A stretch of DNA of 39,100 bases from Candidatus Woesearchaeota archaeon (GTDB lineage Archaea; Nanobdellota; Nanobdellia; Woesearchaeales; GW2011-AR4), in the NCBI GenBank assembly GCA_016185805.1, contig JACPMW010000009.1, forward strand, positions 1 to 39,100, given 5' to 3'. The notes below the pieces were generated by a model that had not been told where the DNA came from, did no database searches, and was given only the letters and a program-made list of their open reading frames with translations. This document shows positions 9,041 through 26,019 of this stretch, in pieces. Position 1 is the stretch's first letter; every line of letters begins with the position of its first letter. The position numbers and the translations under genes are program-made.

Positions 9041-9760
9041 TTAAAATAACTTAAATCCCCTGCTTTCTGTTGTTCCTATTACGCCTCCATCAACAATCTT
9101 GAACAATATCTCTTTTTCCTCTCCAATGCTCCTGTGCTTTTTCAATATCGCTCTTCGGTTTCCATTTGGGGTTATCTGCAGTTCAATCAGGCATTTGCTG
9201 CCATACTTCAAAATGTCTCCCCCGACTATATTGACCTTGTCTTTGGTGTCAAAATCAGCATATACCTGGTTTGCAATCAGGACAGGAATATTTTTTTTCC
9301 TTGCAATCTCAGTCAGGTAAGATATCTGCTTGCTAAGCTCGATATTCACTTCATGTATGTCCTCATTCTTTCCCAGCTCCAGCCTGTAAAGCATCGCTAT
9401 AGTGTCAACGATTATCAGTCCAATCTTGTCATTGACAACGCTTTTTAGCTTCTCAAATGATTTTTTTTGCTCAGCAAAGCTTGTCGGCTTCAGAAAAATG
9501 ATATTGTCAAGCAGCTTTTTGTAATCTTGGCTTATGTGGGAAGCTATCTGCTTCAGCCTCTCAAGAGAAAACCCTCCCTCGCAGTCAACGTAAACAACCT
9601 TTTTGCTGTCCTTTGCCACGTTTACGGCGCAAAGAATGCAAAGGACAGTCTTGCCGGAGCCCGCCGGCCCGTATATTGTAGTTATCACATCCTTTTCATA
9701 GCCGCCCTTCAGCATCTCGTCAAGCACCTTGCTTCCGGTTGCCAGCTTGTTGTCCTCCAT
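9041..9760 (-). CDS. radB: RadB-type RecA-superfamily ATPase
   Basis: Length is 239 aa. LDEMLKGGYEKDVITTIYGPAGSGKT carries the Walker A motif, followed by VVYVDCEGGFSLERLKQI and LIIVDTIAMLYR (Walker B). Size and layout match archaeal RadB rather than RadA, because there is no N-terminal HhH domain. Confidence 0.8.
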   Translation of the reverse strand: MEDNKLATGSKVLDEMLKGGYEKDVITTIYGPAGSGKTVLCILCAVNVAKDSKKVVYVDCEGGFSLERLKQIASHISQDYKKLLDNIIFLKPTSFAEQKKSFEKLKSVVNDKIGLIIVDTIAMLYRLELGKNEDIHEVNIELSKQISYLTEIARKKNIPVLIANQVYADFDTKDKVNIVGGDILKYGSKCLIELQITPNGNRRAILKKHRSIGEEKEILFKIVDGGVIGTTESRGFKLF

Positions 9761-11793: not shown

Positions 11794-13080
11794 TCTTCAA
11801 GAACAAATTAATTTATTTAATTATACTTGTGTTTTTCATTGCCAAGCTATTCACACTATCAGCTTACAAGGCAATTTGGTGGGATGCTTCTGTGTATATT
11901 GGCATGGGCAAATACATTTATTCTCTTGGAAATGCTGGATTGTGGGAGCCCTCAAGGCCTCTGATATGGCCGCTTATGCTTGGATTATTGCCAAAGTTCG
12001 GGGTTCTGGCTGGAATGGTGCTGGACATAGTTTTTGGAAGCCTTGTTATCTTTCTGACCTACTTGATAGGAAAAGAAATATTTAGCGAGAAAACAGGGCT
12101 ATTTGCGGCTTTTTTGCTTGCAATCTCCCCCACATTCTTCTTCTTCAACGGAATAATGCTCACAGAAATTGTCTCGACCTTTTTTTCCCTGTTGGCTGTC
12201 TATCTTTTGCTTAGGAACAAGCACTTTCTTTCAGGAGTTTTTTTTGGAGCTGCATTCCTAACAAGGTTTTTGCAGTTGCTTGCATTTATAGCCGTTGTTC
12301 TGGCATTAATATACAATAAAAAATTCAAATCCAAAATATTTCTTGGCTTTGCAATAGCGGTTTTGCCTTATTTGATTGCCAACCAAATATTGTACAATAA
12401 TGCGCTTTTTCCATTTTTTCAGCAATTATTTTACGGAGCTGTTCAGGGAAAACTTCCTCTATCTGCTGTTCATAGCTGGAATTGCATTGCCATTCAAAAA
12501 GCCAAACAGCAGATTTATTGTATTCCCTTTGATTATACTATTTTTGTTTTTTAATATTATCAGGCAAAAAGAGGTGAGGTTTTTGATTATGCTGCTGCCT
12601 TATATGTATTTGCTTGTATCTTATGCTTTGGTATATTTTATAGACCTTAAAAACTCCTTTAAGAATGCTGTAATATTTTTGATACTGGCTTTATTCATTC
12701 TTTCTGCAATAAGAATATCAATATTTCTTGATTCAGAATCAAATAAATCTGATAAATACGAGGCTTTGCAAAGCAGGCTTGAAGAGGCAAAAGGCAATAT
12801 ATGGATTTCAAGCCCCATAATAGCTGCAGAAAGCGGCAAAAAAATCAGCAAGCTTGTGTATTATCCGGTATTTTGGCAGGACTTTGATGAAACGCTCCTT
12901 GAATCAAAGAAAGCTGACTTCATATTCCTTGACACATGCGATTTGGACTGCAGGCCATTTGACTTGGAATGTGGGGATAACAAGAAAAAAATGATAGCTT
13001 TCTTTAAGCAGAATTTTAACCAGATTTATTCAAAACAAGGTGATTGCCAGCAGTTTGTTTTTAAGAGATATAGCAAATGA
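11790..13080 (+). pseudogene. GT-C fold (PMT_2/ArnT-like, GT39/83-type) glycosyltransferase split by a +1 frameshift
   Basis: Two overlapping ORFs (11790..12554 and 12376..13080) are both multi-TM. The first starts like the GT-C family (AIWWDASVYIGMGKYI, then SPTFFFFNGIMLTE). The hydrophobic reading continues in the +1 frame (YFTELFRENFLYLLFIAGIALPF). The frame switch most likely lies in the T-runs at 12406-12419. An ATGA overlap joins it to the upstream gene. Confidence 0.5.
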
Positions 13081-13111
13081 CACAACTTTTTAGACATAGA
13101 AATGTCATTTG

Positions 13112-13189
13112 CTTGTCGAAAATCAAAGATTTTCGAGCATGCTCGGAAATTGTAACAATCCATTATATATTTTTGCAATTTCCGACATA
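13112..13189. repeat. dispersed palindromic element, copy 2
   Basis: The sequence cttgtcgaaaatcaaagattttcgagcatgctcggaaat...gcaatttccgacata contains the perfect 12-bp palindrome cgagcatgctcg. It lies in a convergent intergenic region. Confidence 0.7.
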
Positions 13190-13269
13190 TTACGAGAAGA
13201 CAACAATTCCTCTCCAAGAGGGCTTTGAACTCTGTTCAAAAGTCTAATAACTTTTGTCTTCGAGTATAG

Positions 13270-13725
13270 TTATTTCTTTATTTTAATAAAATCCCCCAAT
13301 GTAAAGCCTTCAATGCTTTTCCTGCCGGACTTGAAAGCATCCTCTTTGTACTCCTCAACCAGTTTTATCCCAAGGAATTTCTCGAGCTTTCTTGCCAGAT
13401 TGATAGGAGGTGCAAAAGCCCCTGTTTCTATCTTGCTTATGATAACCTCTTTTTCATTTATCCTGTTTGCAAATTCTTTTTGTGTCAGTCCCATTGATTC
13501 CCTTTTTTTCTTTATGATTTCAGGATAATCTTCAACAATTAATTCAGTTTTTTCTTTTTCCTCCCTTTTTTGGAGCTGCATGTGCTGCTCTTTTGGGCTT
13601 GGCCGCTTGGGAGCAGAAATGACTTTTCCAAACTTGGCGCAGTCAGCGCAGACGTCTAAATTAACTCCTTCAATTATCGCTTTTGCCAGGCTTTCTGTTG
13701 TCTTTCCGCACAGGTCGCAATTCAT
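13270..13725 (-). CDS. mbf1: archaeal multiprotein-bridging factor 1 (Zn-ribbon + XRE-type HTH)
   Basis: An N-terminal CxxC...CxxC zinc ribbon (MNCDLCGK...VCADCAKFG) is followed by an HTH (MGLTQKEFANRINEKEVIISKIETG). Length is 151 aa. Confidence 0.85.
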   Translation of the reverse strand: MNCDLCGKTTESLAKAIIEGVNLDVCADCAKFGKVISAPKRPSPKEQHMQLQKREEKEKTELIVEDYPEIIKKKRESMGLTQKEFANRINEKEVIISKIETGAFAPPINLARKLEKFLGIKLVEEYKEDAFKSGRKSIEGFTLGDFIKIKK

Positions 13726-14034
13726 TTCTAATCACCGATTATGGTTATGATTATTCTTCTATTATTTCTAGGTTATATGGTCCAATTGATAAACGCGACC
13801 TTATATATTTTACTTATCAGTAAAATACTTTATAGTCTTCAAAATATATATTTCAGTAGCACTGCCCACTGGACATTCCCCGACGTAGACTATTTAAACT
13901 CATTCTACCATTTTTTGATAATTTTTGAGATTTTAAATCAACTTAAAATATCTCGACTGTTAAATTATAATTTTTGTTATAACTATATAAAAATCATTTA
14001 GATAGTCTCAATTAAGAAAACTTAGTGATTTAAA

Positions 14035-15222
14035 ATGAATAATCAAAAAATCGGAAATTTAGAATCGCTTAATAAGCAAGTCTATGATGAAATCCATTGG
14101 TGGCAGTTTCCTTTAGCCGAATTTTCGATTAAATTAAATAAAAATTTTAAAGATATATTTTTTAATAAAATTATATCTAAAAGAAGCAAATCTTTAGAGT
14201 TTGCCTCTTATATGAACAATAGATCTAAAAAATATCATAAAGACTGGAATTTCAAGAGACAAAGAGCACTTATTTGGGACTATAAAATCAATGCCGAATT
14301 TGTGCCAGCATGGTTTGTTTATGAATCTGTTATGTATTTAAAAATGGATTTGCTAGAAATAGAAGAAAATATAATAGCATATTTAACTTTTAGGGGTAGA
14401 ACTATAGTTCATCCGAAATTACCTGTAGAGGTTAAACCCGAATTCTCAAGTTTAATTGCCCACATGATATGTGATGGAACTGTAAGAGAAGATAGATTCT
14501 TTTACTTCCAAAAGGATAAAGATGGATTGAAAAGGTTTATAGAACTAATTCAGAATGTATTTGGAAACTATTCTACAAATCCTCAAAGAGGTCACACAGT
14601 TCCTTTGATTTTTAAAGAAGTAATATCCTCCTATTTTAAAGCATCTAAATTTGGAAGTCTAGATTGCAACTTAACAAACAAAATTTTTGAGCTTCCTCGA
14701 TTGCATAAAGTGGCAATTTTAGCTGGAGCCCTATTGGATGATGGGCACTCTGTGTCATGCATTAGATTTTATACTGCTAGTTTGGATTTTGCTCAAAGTT
14801 TAAAAAGGCTTTCAGAATCTATTGGTTATAAATGTACACCCATAATTAAAAGAAAACCTGATGCCGAAAATTGGCATAATTTATACACGTTTAATATCTC
14901 CGCTGAAAGCATACCTAAGTTCTACCAAGACCTTACAGAACTATTTGAACTCTATCCAAAACTACATATAGGGAAGAAATATGATAATATCAGAAAATTT
15001 GTTGAAATAAAAAACAGAGCTTGGGAACAGAGGGCTAAAGGGGAAACTATAAAAATAATTTTAGACACTCTAAAAGAAAATGGAAGAAGTGCTCAAGAAC
15101 TAAGTGAAATAACAAATACTTCTTTATGGACAGTTTATCATCATTTACAAAAACTTATAAAAAGAGGAAAATTAACTAAATTCAAAAAATATAAGGATAC
15201 ATTTGTTTATAGGTTAGTTTGA
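14035..15222 (+). CDS. free-standing double-motif LAGLIDADG homing-endonuclease-like protein with C-terminal wHTH
   Basis: There are two LAGLIDADG-type helices, LIAHMICDGTV and LAGALLDDGHS, about 100 aa apart. The C terminus reads RSAQELSEITNTSLWTVYHHLQKLIKRGKL (wHTH). The gene and its upstream 300 nt are visibly far more AT-rich than the flanks. Confidence 0.7.
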   Translation: MNNQKIGNLESLNKQVYDEIHWWQFPLAEFSIKLNKNFKDIFFNKIISKRSKSLEFASYMNNRSKKYHKDWNFKRQRALIWDYKINAEFVPAWFVYESVMYLKMDLLEIEENIIAYLTFRGRTIVHPKLPVEVKPEFSSLIAHMICDGTVREDRFFYFQKDKDGLKRFIELIQNVFGNYSTNPQRGHTVPLIFKEVISSYFKASKFGSLDCNLTNKIFELPRLHKVAILAGALLDDGHSVSCIRFYTASLDFAQSLKRLSESIGYKCTPIIKRKPDAENWHNLYTFNISAESIPKFYQDLTELFELYPKLHIGKKYDNIRKFVEIKNRAWEQRAKGETIKIILDTLKENGRSAQELSEITNTSLWTVYHHLQKLIKRGKLTKFKKYKDTFVYRLV

Positions 15223-15621
15223 TGCTACTATGGTTACTATTATTTTACGGTTACTTCTAGGTCCATCGAGTTCGCAAAATTGAAGTGCCTGCCACCGTCC
15301 TAACGCTAGTTTACCATTTTTTATTGGTATCGTCTCGCTTGGCCCCAAAATTGCTGATTTTATGTGGGAGTCTGCGTTGCCGTCAATCCTGTCATGCCTC
15401 CAGATTCCGCTTGGGATAAGCTTGCTTAATGCATCAAGCAGGTCAAGGCATATATTCGGGTCATAGTTCTCATTTATAATTATTGCTGCTGTCGCATGCG
15501 CTGCAAAAACACTGCAAATGCCGTTTTTTATCTTTGATTTTTTAAGGATGGAACTGATTTTGCCTGTTATGTCTATCAATTCCTGCTTTTTTCCTGTTGA
15601 TATTGTGAATTCTTCCTGCAT
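15214..15621 (-). CDS. yjbQ: YjbQ/UPF0047 family protein (secondary thiamine-phosphate synthase-type)
   Basis: ELIDITGKI, CSVFAAHATAAIIINENYDP, DGNADSHIKSAILGPSETIPI and GRWQ... form the characteristic YjbQ pattern. Length is 135 aa. Confidence 0.85.
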   Translation of the reverse strand: MQEEFTISTGKKQELIDITGKISSILKKSKIKNGICSVFAAHATAAIIINENYDPNICLDLLDALSKLIPSGIWRHDRIDGNADSHIKSAILGPSETIPIKNGKLALGRWQALQFCELDGPRSNRKIIVTIVASN

Positions 15622-17666: not shown

Positions 17667-18029
17667 CTATAATTTTTTATATCCAAATTTCTTATCATAC
17701 TCTTTGTGATCCATAAACTCAAGAAGGACAGAAATGATCTCAAATTCATTGCCCACGATGGTGTAGAGTATTCTCCAATATCCTGGCAAGTCTATTTTCC
17801 ATAAGTTTGTTACTCCATACTGAGCGACATATTCTTTTGGAATTTTGCTCTTCTCAATCTGGGTGCCCCTGTGCATGTCAACGCGGAGGTTGCCTTCCTC
17901 CCGTTCAATGGCCTTAAGAAGCTGCCTGTGAAATTTACCGTCTTTTTCCTTGACAGCTTCGCGGAGCTTTTTTAGCTGCTCTTCAAAGAGCGGAGAATGC
18001 CTCACCCTAACAGCCTTGGAAGTCTTCAT
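17667..18029 (-). CDS. RelE/ParE-superfamily toxin-like protein
   Basis: Length is 120 aa. The C terminus LWKIDLPGYWRILYTIVGNEFEIISVLLEFMDHKEYDKKFGY resembles the RelE/ParE/YoeB core (xxRxxY...beta strand...H..Y). It starts 1 nt after the stop of the upstream wHTH gene. Confidence 0.55.
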   Translation of the reverse strand: MKTSKAVRVRHSPLFEEQLKKLREAVKEKDGKFHRQLLKAIEREEGNLRVDMHRGTQIEKSKIPKEYVAQYGVTNLWKIDLPGYWRILYTIVGNEFEIISVLLEFMDHKEYDKKFGYKKL

Positions 18030-18030
18030 C

Positions 18031-18285
18031 CTATATGCTATTCTCCAATAATTTCTTCATCTTGGGGCTTTCGTTATGCACCCAGAGGACGCCTTTGCTT
18101 CCTGTCATAATAACTCCCTTATCTTCCAGATAGTTCAGAATGATATTGAGTGTTTGCCTCATAACCTGCTTGGGAAGGCGCCTTTGCAGTTCGCTTTTGG
18201 AGATGGCAAGTTCAGCATTCTTTAGCACTTCCTCTACCATGAGGACAGTGTCCAATCGCGGGTAATGCAGTACTTCTTGCGGCAT
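18031..18285 (-). CDS. small winged-helix DNA-binding protein (putative antitoxin/regulator)
   Basis: Length is 84 aa. ISKSELQRRLPKQVMRQTLNIILNYLEDKGVIMTGSKGVLWV fits a helix-turn-helix plus wing. It is the first gene of a two-gene operon with the RelE-like ORF. Confidence 0.55.
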   Translation of the reverse strand: MPQEVLHYPRLDTVLMVEEVLKNAELAISKSELQRRLPKQVMRQTLNIILNYLEDKGVIMTGSKGVLWVHNESPKMKKLLENSI

Positions 18286-18358
18286 GATGTTAACCTCTGT
18301 ATAGACTTATCTATATATAAACTTATATATAAATGTTTTGGTTTTTTGTAAAAGCTGT

Positions 18359-18470
18359 CAATGGAAAAAACTTAGGAGAGCGAACCCGTATAATCTACAG
18401 AGATTATGCGAAGCCACCAACTTAAAGGACTTTCGGTTTAACGCTAACAGCGGCAGCTCAAAAAATGTTA
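18359..18470 (+). repeat. upstream module copy R1 (5' of the wHTH/RelE-like operon)
   Basis: The sequence caatggaaaaaacttaggagagcgaaccCGTATAATctacagagATTATGCGaagcc...cggcagctcaaaaaatg is related to 24730-24861 in the same orientation. It is related to 20657-20768 in the inverted orientation. Confidence 0.7.
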
Positions 18471-18689
18471 GAGGAGCACCGCAACCCCTTTGATGGGGTG
18501 AGGAGCGGACTCGCTTAAAATGTGTTATATGCAATGAGGCTTTGATGCCGAATGACATTTCTTACGCCCTAAAACTTATTCTTCCTGTACATCACGCAAG
18601 AATGAGTAATGTTCCGTTAGGCTTTGCGCTTAATCCCACGTTGTACGCATTACTTGTAGTGCGTGTTTGCAGGATTAAGCGAAAGGGAG

Positions 18690-18804
18690 AAGGCTAAGTT
18701 TTAGGTTTAACTATAGACAAAGAGGCAGTTCGTTTCGTTTTTCGTTAGGGGGAGTTCCTAATAAAGAATTATATTTAAATAGTAGATACGCTCTCAAGTC
18801 ATTT
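18690..18804 (+). repeat. left inverted-repeat arm of the small-protein/lipobox cassette (includes promoter)
   Basis: The core ggtttaactatagacaaagaggca (18704-18727) reappears inverted at 20255-20282 (tgcctctttgtctatattaagttaaacc). Weaker similarity continues through the atttaaata TATA box to each start codon. Confidence 0.65.
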
Positions 18805-19222: not shown

Positions 19223-19819
19223 TTATGTTATTACTAATTCAAATTGTTCGGTGGCTAATAGTTTTCTAGCTGTTTCTAAGTCTGTTTTTATAACTTCACT
19301 AGGAACAACTGCATGATTCATTCCTCCACTTTCGATGAAATTTTGTTGTTTTCCTGATACATTCTTAATGTAGATATATCCGCCTAATTTTTCACTTTCA
19401 ATATTAATTTTTTCTTCTAACTTCTCTAAAACTTTCAATTGCTTATCTTTTATTCTCTGTTCTTCAATACTTTTTTCATATGCCAATTTTGCATCAGCTT
19501 CTGCTTGCTTTTTTCTTTCTTCAATTCCTTGCAACTGTTCTGGTGTACAATCACCACATTTATCGCATTTATAAAACTCAATTAGTCGTTTTAATTCAGC
19601 AGAACCACCAGTATATTTTCCAGTGTTACAGACCATGTTACATATATCCTGATTATTTCCAGAATCACTTTTACCATGCATACATAAGTCCACACAATAA
19701 CTCAATTGTGACTGGAAAATTCCTTGTGTGGGACAGCTTACTTTTGTGTTTGTAGGATTGCTTGTAGTGCAACTAGCAACCAAGACCACCAACAAACTTA
19801 TAATGATTAATATTTTCAT
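19223..19819 (-). CDS. secreted Cys-rich protein with lipobox-like signal peptide and coiled-coil
   Basis: MKILIIISLLVVLVASC is a signal peptide with a lipobox-like V-A-S-C. About 10 further Cys fall in the first 90 mature residues. A charged coiled coil and a C-terminal globular part follow. Confidence 0.6.
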   Translation of the reverse strand: MKILIIISLLVVLVASCTTSNPTNTKVSCPTQGIFQSQLSYCVDLCMHGKSDSGNNQDICNMVCNTGKYTGGSAELKRLIEFYKCDKCGDCTPEQLQGIEERKKQAEADAKLAYEKSIEEQRIKDKQLKVLEKLEEKINIESEKLGGYIYIKNVSGKQQNFIESGGMNHAVVPSEVIKTDLETARKLLATEQFELVIT

Positions 19820-19829
19820 ATCTCCTCCT

Positions 19830-20180
19830 TCAATCTTCTGCCAATCTTTTGAAATATTCCTTTACAGGTGCTTGAGTATTATTTTCATTTTGAGAGTTGT
19901 TACCAATACCACCGCCTTCCCCACCATCGCCCTTGCTTTCACTACTACTCAGCTTTTTATTGATGTCCTGAATGGCTTGTGATGTATTTTCCAATTGTTG
20001 TTTTAATTCTTCATTCTGTTTTGTAAGGTTTTCAACAATTTGCTGGGTTGTGTTTTGGACTATCTTTTGCGTTTCATTCTTGAAGATAGGTTCATATTTT
20101 TCCCTATATATTTGCTCTTGCTCGGCAGTACAACCAATAACTAAAGCTGTTAGCAAAACTATGGATATATACCTCATCAT
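19830..20180 (-). CDS. small secreted protein with lipobox-like signal peptide
   Basis: MMRYISIVLLTALVIGC is a signal peptide with a V-I-G-C lipobox. The rest is Gln/Asn/Glu-rich with a GDGGEGGGIGNN tract. It is the first gene of a two-gene minus-strand unit. Confidence 0.55.
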   Translation of the reverse strand: MMRYISIVLLTALVIGCTAEQEQIYREKYEPIFKNETQKIVQNTTQQIVENLTKQNEELKQQLENTSQAIQDINKKLSSSESKGDGGEGGGIGNNSQNENNTQAPVKEYFKRLAED

Positions 20181-20300
20181 TTTAGTGAGTATCTTGCTTT
20201 AAATATTTAAATCTACTTATCTATTAAAAATATCAGTCAATAATAGTAAAGACGTGCCTCTTTGTCTATATTAAGTTAAACCCTTTAGTTTTCTCGAAGA
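20181..20300 (-). repeat. right inverted-repeat arm of the small-protein/lipobox cassette (includes promoter)
   Basis: This is the reverse complement of the 18690-18804 arm. The core is 20255-20282, and a shared atttaaata TATA lies at 20200-20211. Confidence 0.65.
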
Positions 20301-20312
20301 TTAGCTTTAGCC

Positions 20313-20445
20313 AAAAATTTCAACAACATGGGTGAAAATTGAGTGCAGAGGATTTTTCAGTTACGAAGTTCTGAAAAATCCTTTGCGAATAGGGTTTTCA
20401 CCAAGAAAACCCGTGTTTGAACCCTTTGTTGTTGTTGAAATTTTT
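20313..20445. repeat. 133-nt long imperfect hairpin / MITE-like palindromic element
   Basis: aaaaatttcaacaac (20313-27) pairs with gttgttgaaattttt (20431-45). ggtgaaaa pairs with ttttcacc. aggatttttcag (20349-60) pairs perfectly with ctgaaaaatcct (20371-82) around the loop ttacgaagtt. Confidence 0.6.
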
Positions 20446-20656
20446 ATTTGAAAATTCTTTGTATGGATTTGCAAATTATCATCGAGAAAATGCAAAACAA
20501 AGTGAAGCAGGGCAGTAAGAAATGGGCATATAACGTACAGAGCAAGGCGACCTTTGGCTCGAGGCGAGAAATTTTTTCCTCGAATTTTGAGGCAACCCGC
20601 AAAATTCAGAGCTGAAAAAATTTTGAAGCACTCGAGACTTTTTTCCGCAGAAAAAA

Positions 20657-20768
20657 GTTTGCCTTGCGAGTGTTAGGCGACCGATAGGCGAGTGAGCCGC
20701 AGCGAACATCGAGTTTTTGAGCCACCCCGTGCGTTACTGCCGTAGTTTTTGCTTAATTGATTTTCCAT
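20657..20768 (-). repeat. upstream module copy R2 (5' of the nuclease gene; inverted relative to R1/R3)
   Basis: The reverse complement reads atggaaaatcaattaagcaaaaactacggcagtaacgcacggggtggctcaaaaactc...tcgcctaacactcgcaaggcaaac. It matches R3 blocks aagcaaaaact, ggcagtaacgcac, ggtggctcaaaaact and gcctaacac in the same order. The R1/R3 hairpin segment is absent. Confidence 0.7.
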
Positions 20769-20803
20769 AAACATTATATATACTAAACACAAACAAAAGT
20801 AAT

Positions 20804-22258
20804 ATGGAGTCATTATTAAAATATCCATGGAAATATATACATAGCACTAGCAATCATCAGTCTGTAACTGCCAAGTTAGTTGAAACTCTAAATGCAACAA
20901 ATAAACAAGATTTTTTCCCTGAAACATATTTTTATCTTACTCATTTAATAAATCCAATCAATGCATACTGGACTAAATTGACTACTTCAACTGTTTCAAA
21001 TTCCAACGATACTGCAAGAAAATTATTTTTAGGTAATAAAATAGAAAGGTTGGCTAGTATTTGGTTCAAAAAATTACCAGACTTTGTTGTTGAACAAGGC
21101 AAGTTAGATGGCGCTTTTGTAGGCATCCCGGGAGTTGTAGGAAAATTTGATTTCTTAATTGGTGATTCTATAATTGAACTAAAAAGCAAAGAGGAATTCC
21201 CAACAGATGAAAAAGAGATTATCCAGCTTTATCCTCATGATATAGAGCAGTTGGCTTTTTACTCAGCTTTACACCCTATGCAACCAAAGGAAAATTACCT
21301 TGTATTCATAAATCAGGTTCATCCTTACCAATTTAAAGCGTATAAATTAATAATAAAAGATTTTGGGAAAGTCAAATCAATCATACTATCCAGAATTAGC
21401 CATCTTAAAAAATCTATTGAGGGTAAAGATTACAGTTCTTTGGGCAAATGTAGGTATTATGATCTAGGATGTAAATTTCAAGACAATCAAATATGCAACT
21501 GTGAGTCCTTAGAATCACTTCCAGATACAATAAGTTCAGCAGTTGAGATAAAATATGATGAAGAATTCACAAAGCTGCTTCAATCTGAAATGGAAAAATC
21601 TGGATTTAAAGGAGAAGCATACACCACTTTAGATTTAATCATCCCTAGAAAAAAGATAATGAATGATAAGCTAAACATATCTGAAGAAATCGTTTCGGAC
21701 ATGAAAAAAGAAGGCTATATTTCTTGTTTGGACAATCTTGTAAAAAAATTACCCTATAAAATATCCAAAGAGCAAAGAAAAATTATCAAAGAAGGGCTAT
21801 TTGATGATAGATTAATCATTGCACAAAGATGGTTAAATCTACCAAGTTCTGGTAAAACAATGGGGGAGTTAGTACCTTATATAATTAAATGTGGAAAAAC
21901 TACCGACAAGGAATTCGCAAGTAAACCAAACACATTTAATATCGGAGAATTAGCAATTATTTGCGCTTCATATGGTGTCACAAAAGGATTAATATTTGTT
22001 ATTTATCCCAATTTAAATGATTTAATTCACACATTTGAAATTAACTTCAAAAATCTTAAAGAAGTTCAAACTGAAATAAAAGGGATTCTTGACCAGCTAG
22101 ACAAAGCAATGGGGGATGGGGAGTTCTTATCTCTGGAACCATGCTTTAAATTTTTTAATAATGAAGGAAAATGCCCATTAATGGAACCTTGCCATTCAGG
22201 AGGAAATAAGGGTTGTGATCCAGATTATATACCCATAAAGAGTAGATTCAAGGCTTAA
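20804..22258 (+). CDS. Cas4/RecB-family-like PD-(D/E)xK nuclease with two four-Cys clusters
   Basis: Length is 484 aa. GKFDFLIGDSIIELKSK gives the D...E-x-K motif, followed by EQLAFYS (QxxxY, a hallmark of the RecB/Cas4 family). Next comes C216-x6-C-x7-C-x-C. A second region ends with C-x9-C-x5-C-x7-C (EPCFKFFNNEGKCPLMEPCHSGGNKGC). The gene is strongly AT-rich. Confidence 0.6.
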   Translation: MESLLKYPWKYIHSTSNHQSVTAKLVETLNATNKQDFFPETYFYLTHLINPINAYWTKLTTSTVSNSNDTARKLFLGNKIERLASIWFKKLPDFVVEQGKLDGAFVGIPGVVGKFDFLIGDSIIELKSKEEFPTDEKEIIQLYPHDIEQLAFYSALHPMQPKENYLVFINQVHPYQFKAYKLIIKDFGKVKSIILSRISHLKKSIEGKDYSSLGKCRYYDLGCKFQDNQICNCESLESLPDTISSAVEIKYDEEFTKLLQSEMEKSGFKGEAYTTLDLIIPRKKIMNDKLNISEEIVSDMKKEGYISCLDNLVKKLPYKISKEQRKIIKEGLFDDRLIIAQRWLNLPSSGKTMGELVPYIIKCGKTTDKEFASKPNTFNIGELAIICASYGVTKGLIFVIYPNLNDLIHTFEINFKNLKEVQTEIKGILDQLDKAMGDGEFLSLEPCFKFFNNEGKCPLMEPCHSGGNKGCDPDYIPIKSRFKA

Positions 22259-22263
22259 ATCAT

Positions 22264-23670
22264 TCACCATAATAATTTTGTTTCTCCGCCGGCTTTTACT
22301 TTGATCTGGTCTACTTTAATAACAAAAGGAAAGTTATTTGTTGCTTGACCTATTAATACTGCTTCTCCCCTACCTAAATTTTTAAGAATTAATAAACTCT
22401 CTGGGTCTATAACTTGAGCTTTAGAAATAAAAGATATATCAGCCGAATTTGAAAAATTAAATGCAAAAAGATTGTCACATTGTCTAAAAACCATTTCCGG
22501 AAGTGTGGTGGGTTCATTAGTAATTATAACTGAGTAAATACCTAAATGCCTCATTCTTGTGATAACATCATCCCAAAATTCTTCCTCAAAATAGTTTTGG
22601 GCTTCTTCAGCAAATAAAAAAATTCTACCTTTATCATATTCACCAGCACGGATTAATTGATTTAAGACGTACACTATTGATAATTCTTTAACTTTTTGGC
22701 CTTGAGCAAACATATTTATTATGATAGCGCCCCCAGAACTTTTTACTTTCTTTAAGTCTTTTGACAAATCAAAGTCTCCAAATATATTAAGACTTTTTGC
22801 AAATTCTATTCTCCCTACTGCTGCAGTAACTGTATTTTGATGACTTCCACTTTCTTCTATGTAATCCTGTAAATTATCTAAGTCCTTCCCCTCACGATTT
22901 TCATTCCAATATCTAGAAAATAGTCTATAAGCATTATGGGAGTCATCTATCTGGCACATTCTGGCGAAAGTTTCAAATCTTATTCCATCTAAAGGTATCA
23001 AAAAATTTTTAGTAGGAATTAGTTCTATAATTAAGTCATGATAAGATGATTTTCCGCCTGATTCTTTTTCTTTTAATCCTGAATATTCACCATTTACATC
23101 TAAAATAACAATAGGAGCTTTGTTTTTAATAAGTTCCTCAACAATTTTTTTAGATAAATGAGATTTACCCGAACCTTTTTTACCTGTAATTAATGTAATA
23201 CCTTGTAATCCTGTTAAGTCTAAATTAAATTCTGAATTTGTTTTCAAGAATTTTCCTATTTGTGCTGGTTTTTTAGGTTTAAATCCGATGAGTTTGGCAA
23301 CATTGTCTTCAGGAATTACTGAAACTTTTGAATTTCTCGAAGGGAGTATAGTAGAACCGAGTAAGAAGTTTGAGTTAATCAGATTTCCCCTAATTTTACA
23401 TCTCGCAATTCGTGCATCTCTTACAGAATTGTAGTAATTCGCTAATTCAGATTGTGGTGCGAGTACATCTGCACCTGCTGCAATCTCTCTTAACAAACTA
23501 GCAAAAAAACCTGGAAAATCTGAATACTGTAAATCAAAGATTTGGGCTATGCAACAATAACTCCCATCTTCTATTTTAAAACAATCCCCCACCCTTAAGT
23601 CAAGTCCGGAAGAAAACATAAATGCAATTTCATTTTCTTTTTTGTAGATTATTTTGATTTTATTTTCCAT
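22264..23670 (-). CDS. herA: HerA-like (FtsK/HerA superfamily) hexameric ATPase
   Basis: Length is 468 aa. An N-terminal barrel-like region reads LRVGDCFKIEDGSYCCIAQIFDL. Walker A is ITLITGKKGSGKSH. VILDVNGEYS follows, and Walker B is IFLFAEEAQNYF. RHLGIYSVIITNEPTTLPEMVFRQCDNLFAFNFSNSAD and LGRGEAVLIG match HerA/DUF87 blocks. It lies 5 nt downstream of the NurA-like gene. Confidence 0.75.
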   Translation of the reverse strand: MENKIKIIYKKENEIAFMFSSGLDLRVGDCFKIEDGSYCCIAQIFDLQYSDFPGFFASLLREIAAGADVLAPQSELANYYNSVRDARIARCKIRGNLINSNFLLGSTILPSRNSKVSVIPEDNVAKLIGFKPKKPAQIGKFLKTNSEFNLDLTGLQGITLITGKKGSGKSHLSKKIVEELIKNKAPIVILDVNGEYSGLKEKESGGKSSYHDLIIELIPTKNFLIPLDGIRFETFARMCQIDDSHNAYRLFSRYWNENREGKDLDNLQDYIEESGSHQNTVTAAVGRIEFAKSLNIFGDFDLSKDLKKVKSSGGAIIINMFAQGQKVKELSIVYVLNQLIRAGEYDKGRIFLFAEEAQNYFEEEFWDDVITRMRHLGIYSVIITNEPTTLPEMVFRQCDNLFAFNFSNSADISFISKAQVIDPESLLILKNLGRGEAVLIGQATNNFPFVIKVDQIKVKAGGETKLLW

Positions 23671-23675
23671 TTTAC

Positions 23676-24689
23676 TTACCCTTTACTCCATGGTCCAAAA
23701 AGTACTGGTCTAATGCGTTGCTCTATGGTTAATGCGTACTTGTCTATTGCATAAGCCTGCATGGCCAAAATTTCAGACGGGTCAAAAACACAAAATATAT
23801 GTGCTAATCTTAGTGGATCTGGGTATCCGTCTGGACCGCAGTATTTTGCGATAATTCCAAAAATTTTATTTACATCACTATCTTTTGGAAAAACATCTAC
23901 TCTAAAGGCATAGCCACTGGGTTTGAATCTTACTACAAAAATTTTTCCCAGATATCTTGATTGATTGGCCAAATTTACTTTATTAGTAACATCGATATAG
24001 CATGGTTTATTGTTTAATTCTAATTTTTGAGTTAGGTCATTACCTTTATTATCTGTTACTATAGTATGTTTAGATACAGCAACCATCACTGAATTATTTT
24101 TTTCTGCTTGTTCTTTCATCTCTTTCATAACAGAATTAGGGGAGTCTACTGTACCAGTTATTAATGAGCCATCAAATAAGAAAATAGATTTTGGATTATT
24201 TTTTACTAATCTAAATTGAACTACTCTTTCGATTATATTTCTAATCCTATCCGGCATTTTAAAAACCTCTGGGCTTTTAACAGAATCTGTAGAGAAAAAA
24301 TATTTCTTACGAAGTTCCCTATACATGGAAGTCTTATTATCAAATGTTATTTTTATTATTTCAGGTCCAACTATTTCAATAGATGGTTCTAAATTTGGCT
24401 GAACAGATATTAATGCGCCTCTAACAGAGGCAACAATACCTTTTTCTACCCTACCCAAAGTATTTGAAGTGCTATCAATAGCAAATATTTTCTTCATATC
24501 GGTCAATTCAAAGAATGTATCAATTTTTACATCTTCACTTTCTAATTCAATTACTGATTCCTGTTCTCTAGATGGAGCAACAATAAAATCGTTAGGATTA
24601 ACATCTGAAGGTTGGAATTTTTTAGATTTATCTTTCTTAGAAAGTACAGAAATATCTTCTAGTAAATCAGCTATTATACCCTTTCCCAT
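23676..24689 (-). CDS. nurA: NurA-like nuclease (RNase H-like fold)
   Basis: Length is 337 aa. The spaced acidic and signature blocks are IFAIDSTSN, IIERVVQF, IFLFDGSLITG, VMVAVSKHT, FVVRFKPSGYAFRVDV and DGYPDPLRLAHIFCVF. Their order matches NurA-domain motifs. It is the first gene of an operon with the HerA-like ATPase. Confidence 0.65.
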   Translation of the reverse strand: MGKGIIADLLEDISVLSKKDKSKKFQPSDVNPNDFIVAPSREQESVIELESEDVKIDTFFELTDMKKIFAIDSTSNTLGRVEKGIVASVRGALISVQPNLEPSIEIVGPEIIKITFDNKTSMYRELRKKYFFSTDSVKSPEVFKMPDRIRNIIERVVQFRLVKNNPKSIFLFDGSLITGTVDSPNSVMKEMKEQAEKNNSVMVAVSKHTIVTDNKGNDLTQKLELNNKPCYIDVTNKVNLANQSRYLGKIFVVRFKPSGYAFRVDVFPKDSDVNKIFGIIAKYCGPDGYPDPLRLAHIFCVFDPSEILAMQAYAIDKYALTIEQRIRPVLFGPWSKG

Positions 24690-24729
24690 TGAGTACTAGG
24701 ATAAATTTAAGCTATATTTATATTTTATG

Positions 24730-24861
24730 CAATGGGTAAGCAAAAACTTAGGAGAACTTTAGCGAACCATATAATATACACATATTATATGAAGGCAGTA
24801 ACGCACTATAAATTGACGTAAAATGGTGGCTCAAAAACTTTGCCTAACACACGTTAGGCGA
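24730..24861 (+). repeat. upstream module copy R3 (5' of the NurA/HerA operon)
   Basis: The sequence is caatgggtaagcaaaaacttaggagaactttagcgaacCATATAATATacacATATTATATGaaggcagtaacgcac...tggtggctcaaaaactttgcctaacacacgttaggcga. It has a perfect 10-bp hairpin at 24768-24791 and a cctaac/gttagg hairpin at 24843-24858. Confidence 0.7.
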
Positions 24862-24878
24862 AGTTTTGACTTTTTTTC

Positions 24879-24971
24879 ATATGTCGAAAATATACCATCA
24901 CTCTGTGACTGATTGATGTAAATCCAATGTTGCTACCACATATTGCATATTTTCGAGCATGCTCAAAAACC
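24879..24971. repeat. dispersed palindromic element, copy 3 (split by ~50-nt insert)
   Basis: atatgtcgaaaatat (24879-93) and atattttcgagcatgctcaaaaacc (24947-71) match the cores at 7297-7355 and 13112-13189. Confidence 0.6.
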
Positions 24972-25067
24972 ACGTAAAAACATTTATGATAGCAGCATGT
25001 TATTAGTCTATAACTGGTGGTTTTTGACACGTAAAAATTCAGAAATTTTAATCCTGCAATTCACCGC

Positions 25068-25082
25068 AACATTTTTAAATCA
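25068..25082 (+). promoter_or_regulatory. TATA-box promoter of the 5S rRNA gene
   Basis: aacatttttaaatca is centred about 25 nt upstream of the mature 5S 5' end, which is the canonical archaeal TATA spacing. Confidence 0.5.
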
Positions 25083-25099
25083 CTAATTCTTCCTAAATA

Positions 25100-25214
<115 letters not shown>

Positions 25215-25218
25215 TTTT

Positions 25219-26019
25219 CTATCTAAGATTATCAACATCTTTCTTGGAATGAATATGAATCTCCTTTTCAGAGCTCAAATGCCCGTTCAACAGCCCTTTT
25301 TCCGCCAGTTCAGGGAATACATCGCTTTCAAGGCTGTTCCCGGAATATTCAAAGATTTGCGGCTCTGTGACAAATATGGGGGAAAAGACAAGATAGATGT
25401 CCGACTTCCTGGGCTTTTGCGTGAATGTAAGCACTTTGTTGCCTTCAACCCTCACAGTCCCTTTCTCGCTTGGCTTTGATGATGTTGTCAGCATTATTGT
25501 AGCGACTGCATTCTGCTTTATGTGGTCGTTCCACAGCTCTTCAATATTTATCTTGTTAAAAACGATATCGCCGTACACGACAAGGAAATTCGTGCTTATT
25601 CTGCCTTTCAGCAGCCTTAGGGAGCCTGCAGTTCCATTCGAGGATTTCTCTTCAATGTAGCTTATTTTTATTCCATAGCCTGTCCCGTCCTTGAGCATCT
25701 CAAAAAGCCTTGTCAGTAATGCATGCCTTGCAACAATAAAAATAGTCTTGAAATTGTTCTCCCTCAGCTTCTTCAGAGCCAATTCTATGACAAAGCTGTT
25801 CCTTATTTTCGCAGTTGGCCTGTACTCATCCCTTCCAATCCTTATATGCCCCTCATCCCCTCCCAGAAGAATAACGGCAGATTTGTTTTCCCCCAGCGCG
25901 TTCTTTGCAAGGTGCTCTATTGCCTGCGACCTGTTCCTTATGTATATATTGTCGATTATGGAGTCTATGTCCTGCAGCGTCTTCTCGTTTATTGTTATGG
26001 AGATTTTACTTTTAGGCAT
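25219..26019 (-). CDS. ribbon-helix-helix (CopG-like) domain fused to a sugar-phosphate nucleotidyltransferase domain
   Basis: The N terminus KISITINEKTLQDIDSIIDN...IRNRSQAIEHLAKNAL shows an RHH pattern. Next come AVILLGGDEG...RP, then SNGTAGSL and VVYGDIV, which are nucleotidyltransferase (GlmU/RfbA-like) blocks. Length is 266 aa. Confidence 0.65.
   Translation of the reverse strand: MPKSKISITINEKTLQDIDSIIDNIYIRNRSQAIEHLAKNALGENKSAVILLGGDEGHIRIGRDEYRPTAKIRNSFVIELALKKLRENNFKTIFIVARHALLTRLFEMLKDGTGYGIKISYIEEKSSNGTAGSLRLLKGRISTNFLVVYGDIVFNKINIEELWNDHIKQNAVATIMLTTSSKPSEKGTVRVEGNKVLTFTQKPRKSDIYLVFSPIFVTEPQIFEYSGNSLESDVFPELAEKGLLNGHLSSEKEIHIHSKKDVDNLR

Follow-up and report, generated by a model that had tools for sequence, protein, structure and literature searches.

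The window analysed here is a 39,100-nt stretch from a Candidatus Woesearchaeota archaeon (positions 1 to 39,100 of the forward strand of contig JACPMW010000009.1, assembly GCA_016185805.1). At 20804-24689 it holds three tightly packed genes bracketed by a pair of inverted repeats. The first gene (20804..22258, plus strand) encodes a two-domain Cas4/RecB-like PD-(D/E)xK nuclease of 484 aa. It converges on a minus-strand operon, in which nurA (23676..24689, 337 aa, a NurA-family nuclease) comes first and herA (22264..23670, 468 aa, a translocase/ATPase of the hexameric HerA family) second, with 5 nt between them. The stop codons of the nuclease and herA are likewise separated by 5 nt (ATCAT). 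The open reading frame (ORF) coordinates and the sequence itself agree on this layout with an earlier reading made from the sequence without database searches (the sequence-only reading), which had also described the block as AT-rich. The direction of that difference is correct (31.6% GC against 40-42%), whereas the 45-55% it gave for the flanks is too high: the GC contents of the nuclease, herA and nurA genes are 0.316, 0.316 and 0.318, and those of the left and right core flanks 0.396 and 0.417, so that the block lies 8-10 points lower. The low-GC patch starts at ~18500, well before the nuclease gene.

The repeats, at 20647-20768 and 24730-24873, are real and interrupted. Their gapped alignment covers 91 columns at 86% identity and comprises four collinear inverted blocks: one of 26 nt at 81% identity (20653-20678 / 24842-24867) and three exact ones of 15 nt (AGTTTTTGAGCCACC, 20712-26 / 24825-39), 13 nt (GTGCGTTACTGCC, 20729-41 / 24794-806) and 12 nt (AGTTTTTGCTTA, 20744-55 / 24737-48). 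The 15-mer and the 13-mer have no further exact copies in the window. Each repeat is part of a boundary element, and the two elements differ in type. The left one, of the short type (20520..20768, minus strand; nhmmer match 20647-20754), reads on its own strand block A (TAAGCAAAAACT), block B (GGCAGTAAC), block C (GGTGGCTCAAAAACT), a spacer and a structured extension of ~150 nt that starts with GCCTAAC, ends with GCCTTGCTCTGTAC-GTT and folds with z-scores of -5.0 and -5.7. The right one, of the long type (24730..24873, plus strand; nhmmer E 1.6e-30; fold z -3.9), consists of block A, a covarying TATA-rich hairpin, block B, a second insert and block C, and closes with a GCCTAAC-ACAC-GTTAGGC hairpin followed by a T-run. 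Both elements carry the same rare variant of blocks B and C. The first conserved feature beyond the right boundary is a stand-alone 5S rRNA gene (25100..25214, plus strand; Rfam RF00001, 76.3 bits). This gene was all that ARAGORN and Rfam returned, at gathering and E-value thresholds, when the repeats were considered as tRNA, rRNA or another known RNA. The long element was also considered as the promoter of the 5S gene and rejected: a TATA box belonging to the 5S gene itself lies ~25 nt upstream of it, both in the window and in a related locus (L024), and most copies of the element have no 5S gene nearby.

The sequence-only reading had taken the repeats for a private upstream module of the two operons. 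They belong instead to a lineage-wide repeat family that lies beside unrelated genes. The module was first seen to recur, by BLAST, on both sides of a block of restriction-modification and nuclease genes in two related loci, L006 and L007. Loci were then collected with one exact pattern from the window, which gave 37 GTDB genome stretches and 79 metagenome stretches. Most of the 37 are labelled Woesearchaeota or resemble mis-binned DPANN archaea, and ~11 are bacterial and probably chance matches. An nhmmer profile built from seven copies found 111 copies in 95 of 129 loci, mostly labelled Woesearchaeota or unlabelled metagenome contigs. A virus origin was rejected: IMG/VR viral contigs contained neither the element pattern (0 matches) nor any relative of the nuclease or of NurA.

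The anatomy of the family follows from these copies. Block A has the consensus AAC/GCAAAAA(C/T)T, block B is GCCACCAAC (rarer variant GGCAGTAAC), block C is GGCAGCTCAAAAACT (rarer variant GGTGGCTCAAAAACT), and block D reads GCCTAAC...GTT....GAACTTTT. The long type has the TATA-rich hairpin between A and B and the second insert between B and C; the short type lacks both and has the ~150-nt structured extension inside block D. All two-copy loci that span cargo are arranged short(-)...long(+) or as the mirror image, with the A ends facing each other (the window, L006, L007, L012, L015, L019, L028, L062, L064, L093, L105, L108 and L117). Tail-to-tail fusions occur just at the junctions of consecutive units, in L012 (7615-7925) and L065. 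Moreover, both ends carry the same B/C variant in 11/11 typed two-copy loci (ten that span cargo and the L065 junction). The rare variant, which makes up ~10% of copies, is matched in three pairs, those of the window, L015 and L064. The long-type hairpin covaries, with double changes at 5/10 pairs in an alignment of 39 copies; one of its pairs is CG in 20 copies and AU in 17. More than 10 other contigs carry the short-type extension at 90-94% identity, above the conservation of the neighbouring proteins. The consensus structure of the extension has 51 pairs, of which the divergent L006 copy keeps 10 through changes on both sides, and its conservation ends sharply after GCCTTGCTCTGTAC-GTT(N4)GAAC.

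What lies between the A ends is biased towards defence. The cargo is 1.6 to 7.3 kb long, often comprises several genes and may read in either orientation. We found an MvaI/BcnI restriction enzyme with a methyltransferase and the nuclease (L006, L007); DUF4420, Z1, HATPase_c_3, Dcm and Vsr genes (L012); AAA_21 with the AbiL-like RloB, and AIPR (L028, L029); a methyltransferase with a PLD nuclease (L015); type III Res and Mod (L048, L093); RE_TdeIII (L032); a RecD-like helicase with a weak DraIII-like match and an N6 methyltransferase (L062); and methyltransferases alone (L014, L021, L064, L117). Further A-side cargo includes an SMC-like ATPase with a methyltransferase, weak TIR-like and GmrSD-like matches, ParE toxin-antitoxin genes and several unknowns. 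The family seen most often near the elements is that of the N6/N4 methyltransferases (17 loci). A protein family of 88-103 aa, which may be a controller protein, recurs beside the slot methyltransferases (L006 2420-2686, L007 9591-9857, L015 1062-1340, L089, L093 and L125).

The D side, by contrast with this A-side cargo, is occupied by housekeeping genes: 5S rRNA with an NTP-transferase, pyruvate phosphate dikinase (PPDK), a class II aminoacyl-tRNA synthetase and methionine aminopeptidase, as well as Hef, GatB, SHMT-FolD-FNR and NFACT. Locus L024 has the right flank of the window, namely a long element, 5S rRNA, the NTP-transferase, UDP-glucose dehydrogenase and a 244-aa protein (75-84% aa identity), and at the same site it carries different cargo without nurA-herA. 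Since L024 keeps the flank and holds other genes, the block can be regarded as accessory DNA, as the sequence-only reading had proposed. Within L024, the 5S orthologue (~2605-2790) has an apparent ~70-nt insert, and Rfam did not detect it at the gathering threshold. No strain variants of the window locus are on record in a look-up through the exact NTP-transferase protein. Inteins of the LAGLIDADG type were seen in the PPDK and CDC48 genes of related DPANN contigs (L007 11654-15523; L009 10687-14265).

The repeats adjoining the three genes thus mark a site where relatives keep defence genes. We give a probability of roughly 55% to the reading that Woesearchaeota-type DPANN archaea have a repeat-bounded locus for accessory defence genes throughout the lineage and that 20520-24873 is one slot of it, filled here by two units that would degrade DNA ends. 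Such a slot would consist of a short and a long boundary element whose A ends face each other over the cargo and whose outer ends abut housekeeping genes. The three genes appear foreign to the core of the lineage, judging from their GC content (0.316 against ~0.40-0.42) and from the distance of the HerA and NurA relatives.

The fold of the 484-aa protein was assigned from a structure model (AlphaFold2; pLDDT 84, pTM 0.79). Against the PDB, Foldseek ranked Cas4 SSO0001 (4ic1) first, with E 5e-5 and probability 1.0, followed by MGME1 and the lambda/RecE exonucleases. Against BFVD, the model was closest to Cas4-like nucleases of rudiviruses, lipothrixviruses and uncultured archaeal viruses. An alignment of 18 homologues shows D116, E125-x-K127 and Q149...Y153 to be invariant, so that the Cas4/RecB-like fold suggested by the sequence-only reading is borne out by both structure and motifs. 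C216, C223, C231, C233, C447 and C463 are also invariant, and the window protein has two more C-terminal cysteines, C457 and C472. The N-terminal half holds the catalytic motifs and the C216-C223-C231-C233 cluster, and the C-terminal half is a degenerate duplicate of it with a cysteine cluster of its own (hhalign probability 91% over the segment of strand, helix and cysteine cluster). Both clusters may bind iron-sulfur. The protein is most likely a 5'-3' exonuclease that works at DNA ends.

With Cas4 the nuclease shares the D...ExK and QxxxY motifs, the PD-(D/E)xK fold and the presence of cysteine clusters. Cas4, however, has one N-terminal and three C-terminal cysteines, whereas all four cysteines of the first cluster here follow the core as Cx6Cx7CxC. 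The protein is also twice the size of Cas4 through its internal duplication, with the second cluster at the C-terminus, and it differs from Cas4 in profile membership and CRISPR association. Indeed, neither the single sequence nor the 18-member profile matched anything in Pfam, NCBIfam, PADLOC or PDB sequences, and no member of the 18 matched the Pfam profiles Cas_Cas4/DUF83 or PDDEXK_1 at E values up to 0.1. No cas genes were found in the window or in six other nuclease contexts, and a repeat scan of 19500-26000 detected no CRISPR array. The family comprises ~299 clusters at 50% identity, all members being ~450-490 aa long; one relative (P0003, 80% identical) comes from Ca. Woesearchaeota GCA_016185945.1. 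A Cas4-like family of 299 clusters that lacks annotation in Pfam, NCBIfam and PADLOC merits a name.

The HerA and NurA assignments of the sequence-only reading hold, as both proteins score above the Pfam cut-offs and keep their motifs. HerA matches the DUF87/HerA central domain (PF01935, E 2.2e-17, 64.4 bits against a cut-off of 23.2), has intact Walker A (GKKGSGKSH) and Walker B (IFLFAEEAQ) motifs in translation, and matches the solved HerA chains 8wiv and 4d2i in the PDB. The HerA models of PADLOC gave E values from 1e-12 to 1e-18, the best match being mad8 of the MADS system, on which the literature yielded nothing informative. NurA matches PF09376 (E 1.5e-7, 31.6 bits against a cut-off of 21) over model positions 2-249 of 254. 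Its residues D71, E153, D172-G-S and H296 are invariant among six homologues and were equated by position and motif with the published active site (for example, Asp49 of Thermococcus kodakarensis NurA, PMC12977600).

Just four relatives of NurA are detectable, at 32-34% identity, one of them in locus L050, and NurA is 29% identical to the ORF immediately upstream of HerA in a Bathyarchaeota locus (L049). The nearest relatives of HerA are at 53-61% identity. The best relatives with a taxon label come from Micrarchaeota (50-55%), and the closest of all (61%) is unlabelled. The HerA encoded downstream of NurA in L050 is 32% identical over the full length, and its alignment includes the N-terminal 130 residues of the window protein. 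The nearest Micrarchaeota relatives have a WYL-domain PIF1-like helicase beside them or close by (L009 6499-8133, L011 10080-11720), and in L010 HerA comes after a MazE-PIN pair; this HerA subfamily may have partners other than NurA.

The window pair resembles the NurA-HerA resection complex of Sulfolobus, Thermococcus and Deinococcus in its Pfam families, in having nurA directly upstream of herA, and in keeping the acidic and His residues of NurA and the Walker motifs of HerA. It departs from the canonical herA-mre11-rad50-nurA operon in that mre11 and rad50 are not adjacent. The pair lies not in a repair operon but among defence genes, in an accessory slot of low GC that is bounded by repeats, and its nearest NurA relatives are at 29-34% identity. 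As in the SIR2-HerA and DUF4297-HerA systems, a HerA-family ATPase is found beside nuclease-type proteins in a defence-rich setting. Unlike in those systems, no SIR2 or DUF4297 effector accompanies HerA, PADLOC assigns no family to either HerA neighbour, and the NCBIfam 'anti-phage HerA' models, with cut-offs of 800 and 850, score the window HerA at 45 and 34 bits.

The sequence-only reading had proposed a self-contained three-gene system, in other words one three-component DNA-targeting system co-regulated through a shared upstream module and overlapping convergent transcripts. The three genes do share one slot, equal GC (0.316-0.318) and 5-nt gaps, both transcription units start beside matching boundary elements of the same rare variant, and all three proteins would act on DNA ends. 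DUF4297 is itself a PD-(D/E)xK-type nuclease. A HerA that works with a nuclease of this type has a precedent in DUF4297-HerA (PMC11291478). The surveyed neighbourhoods nevertheless speak against such a system. HerA or NurA is adjacent in 0/6 of the other nuclease contexts, which are L006 and L007 (94% and 80% identical nucleases, with the MvaI/BcnI restriction enzyme and methyltransferase), L004 (an island with BsaWI-like and ThaI restriction genes, methyltransferases, Fic and HEPN), L005 (a conjugative element, beside Hjc and an integrase), L001-L003 (beside an MFS transporter and a PIN-ATPase) and L008 (mixed). The contexts of the three nearest HerA relatives have neither NurA nor the nuclease beside HerA (0/3 with the nuclease). 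The same two-gene nurA-herA operon occurs in L049 and in the unlabelled L050, at 29-33% identity, and neither locus has Mre11-Rad50 or the nuclease with it. A tblastn search of the 129 loci with the three proteins found no second co-occurrence, and the trio was therefore rejected as a conserved cassette. In addition, the 94%-identical nuclease of L006 is paired with a restriction-modification system, and the supposed upstream module is a generic boundary element found beside unrelated genes in either orientation. A single system is thus improbable. Because the three are not linked with one another in the other nuclease, HerA and NurA contexts, the three genes have separate histories; their adjacency is specific to the window genome, and the apparent system is probably two neighbouring units. 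A simple inversion of the L006/L007 arrangement was also considered and rejected, as it predicts the 3' end of the nuclease gene at the short element, where the window shows the 5' end.

Once the nuclease is set apart as an unrelated neighbour, the NurA-HerA pair might serve housekeeping DNA-end resection and merely lie in a variable region. No Mre11 or Rad50 domain was found among the 33 ORFs scanned against Pfam, which include the trio, its neighbours and nearly all ORFs of the 39-kb window of at least 100 aa. This agrees with the sequence-only reading, which had further counted the uncoupling from Mre11-Rad50 against housekeeping repair. In itself such uncoupling is not unusual: nurA-herA in the same order and without Mre11-Rad50 occurs at the unremarkable loci L049 and L050, and also in Deinococcus (PMC12977600), and pairs that lack both Mre11-Rad50 and the nuclease are common in Bathyarchaeia. 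The catalytic residues of NurA and the Walker motifs of HerA are intact, DPANN genomes are reduced, which makes a minimal resection set plausible, and the window has a RadA/RadB-like recombinase at 9041-9760. This last gene (minus strand), 11 kb from nurA-herA, encodes a short, RadB-like ATPase of the Rad51/RadA family (239 aa) and is the only recombination gene found within the window. On the other side, nurA-herA lies inside a slot that carries defence genes in relatives, is missing at the orthologous L024 site, and has a GC content 8-10 points under that of the core; the nearest labelled HerA relatives are from another phylum (50-55%), with the closest (61%) unlabelled; and a relative, L007, has a different and distant NurA elsewhere (25% identity over half the length). 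On balance we consider a housekeeping role unlikely.

For the boundary elements themselves, a different explanation is that they are small structured RNA genes, or insulators combining promoter and terminator, beside accessory genes. Their structure is in keeping with this: the long type has the covarying TATA-rich hairpin and a terminal hairpin with T-run, and the short-type extension folds at z ~-5 and keeps pairs in the divergent L006 copy. So is their conservation, which at 90-94% exceeds that of the neighbouring genes, and the absence of a linked recombinase. The elements have, however, no match in Rfam, and the nuclease gene reads away from the element in the window and into it in L006 and L007. 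Because the orientation of genes relative to the elements varies, a promoter or terminator role for the neighbours is inconsistent with the data. The inverted pairing of short and long types, the matched variants and the knife-edge at GTT are, moreover, typical of recombination sites or element termini and not of independent RNA genes. We therefore hold an RNA or insulator role to be rather doubtful.

If the elements are recombination sites or termini, two known kinds of element offer comparisons. Archaeal integron cassette arrays and clusters of attC sites lacking integron-integrases (CALINs) have been described, including in Woesearchaeales, and are rich in cassettes with genes for restriction-modification, toxin-antitoxin and signal-peptide proteins (Ghaly et al. 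2022, PMC9668308). As in those arrays, the slots have accessory cassettes separated by structured imperfect palindromes and, as in CALINs, no integrase nearby; Pfam found no IntI-type integrase domain among the 33 window ORFs. The elements also carry GCCTAAC...GTTAGGC, the inverse-core and core words of textbook integrons, around an inner GCAAGGC/GCCTTGC stem, and their conservation ends at GTT. They differ in being much larger mosaics, each end measuring ~70-250 nt, in their additional inverted A-B-C arms and in having two end types. Whereas integron cassettes are short, mostly co-oriented and promoterless, the slot cargo is several kb long, comprises multiple genes and lies in either orientation. 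An attC site has the form R''(RYYYAAC)-L''...L'-R'(GTTRRRY) over 57-141 nt; here the structure is ~150 nt and branched, and R' misfits GTTRRRY in most copies. None of the metagenome-assembled genomes carrying the elements is in the tables of PMC9668308. A home-made attC scan (RYYYAAC...GTTRRRY with L''/L' pairing) gave 99 matches in shuffled sequence against 49 in the window and was discarded as non-specific.

The other comparison concerns mobile passenger elements. Mobile insertion cassettes and other non-autonomous elements carry passenger genes between inverted repeats without a transposase, and Tn7-like transposons have asymmetric ends and defence cargo. The slots likewise show asymmetric inverted ends, a repeated CAAAAACT word, no transposase and defence cargo. 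They depart from that model in that no target-site duplication was seen, no cognate transposase was identified and the same chromosomal sites are reused across genomes. We regard it as a tentative possibility that the slots represent an undescribed cassette system of Woesearchaeota, with paired asymmetric elements, an attC-like hairpin, reused sites and swapped defence modules, in which NurA-HerA would be anti-virus or anti-plasmid cargo.

Under the slot reading, the first unit of cargo would be a stand-alone Cas4/RecB-like nuclease with two cysteine clusters, and the second a nurA-herA pair in which a hexameric double-stranded DNA (dsDNA) translocase feeds a NurA nuclease dimer. Both units would attack free DNA ends, and their most likely task is the destruction of linear or cleaved foreign DNA. 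End degradation of this kind would complement the restriction systems with which relatives occupy this slot, following a RecBCD-like rule to 'degrade what has an end'. HerA-NurA of T. kodakarensis digests both strands of dsDNA, and its authors raised an antiviral role (PMC12977600). A defence function of NurA-HerA and of the nuclease is suggested by this activity and by the association with the slot. Exchange of cassettes would be mediated by the boundary elements, either through a site-specific recombinase acting in trans or through homologous recombination between the conserved ends.

Several observations weigh against this reading. Neither NurA-HerA nor the nuclease family has a reported defence phenotype, and PADLOC has no model for either partner of HerA. 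The 482 ORFs that lie up to 6 kb from a copy include no recombinase or transposase family present in at least 4 loci, so that the means of exchange is unsupported, and visual inspection of the outer ends of the window pair showed no target-site duplication. Collection with one exact pattern biased the sample towards close variants of the window element. Some of the cargo is not plainly related to defence, such as the ParA-like genes of L108 and several unknowns. Within the scope of the 39-kb window, NurA-HerA could also be the sole end-resection machinery of the organism. Finally, a third boundary element of the long type (18358..18480, plus strand; nhmmer E 6.8e-30) lacks a short partner, and what lies on its A side is the core gene NFACT with a toxin-antitoxin pair, so that the rule has an exception. 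This copy has the common B/C variant and lacks the terminal hairpin.

The surroundings of the third copy have several other features. Between NFACT and this copy, at 17667-18285 on the minus strand, lies a ParE-family toxin with an upstream 84-aa winged-helix-like partner; the toxin ORF (17667-18029, Pfam E 1.3e-5) is the toxin-like neighbour mentioned in the sequence-only reading. NFACT adjoins a boundary element also in L073, L080 and L102. Immediately after the third copy, a GC-richer structured non-coding stretch (18480-18800) has no match in Rfam and no copy in the other 129 loci. Two small ORFs of 198 and 116 aa (19223-20180, minus strand), with hydrophobic, lipoprotein-like N-terminal starts and coiled-coil or low-complexity bodies, lie between two boundary elements. 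They have low GC and no Pfam family, and recall the signal-peptide-rich cassettes of archaeal integrons. Between them and the left element is a 146-nt nested hairpin (20305-20450) with perfect 16-bp outer and inner stems, a minimum free energy of -55.7 kcal/mol and a z-score of -7.7 on either strand. No Rfam family matches it; L124, L019 and L052, each with a boundary element, contain partial copies (82-97% identity). Farther to the left, a second low-GC patch (13000-15600, GC 0.33), possibly another accessory insertion, contains an XRE-type helix-turn-helix protein (13270-13725) and a 395-aa ORF (14035-15222) with weak LAGLIDADG and helix-turn-helix matches.

According to a published report, DPANN archaea have few CRISPR-Cas and restriction-modification systems (PMC12988326); the boundary pair described here bears on how they acquire and exchange the defence genes that they do have. 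A recognisable pair of boundaries would serve as a sequence handle for defence genes, new ones included, and uncharacterised cargo proteins of 675, 780 and 413 aa are candidates for the latter. If the slot reading is true, the mechanism of cassette exchange may differ from that of classical integrons. A defence role for NurA-HerA has hitherto been speculation from biochemistry, and the location of the pair in a slot makes the idea directly testable. The window slot provides a first contextual hint of the NurA-HerA pair as defence cargo, and its bracket opens onto what is apparently an undescribed, lineage-wide organisation of defence genes in Woesearchaeota.

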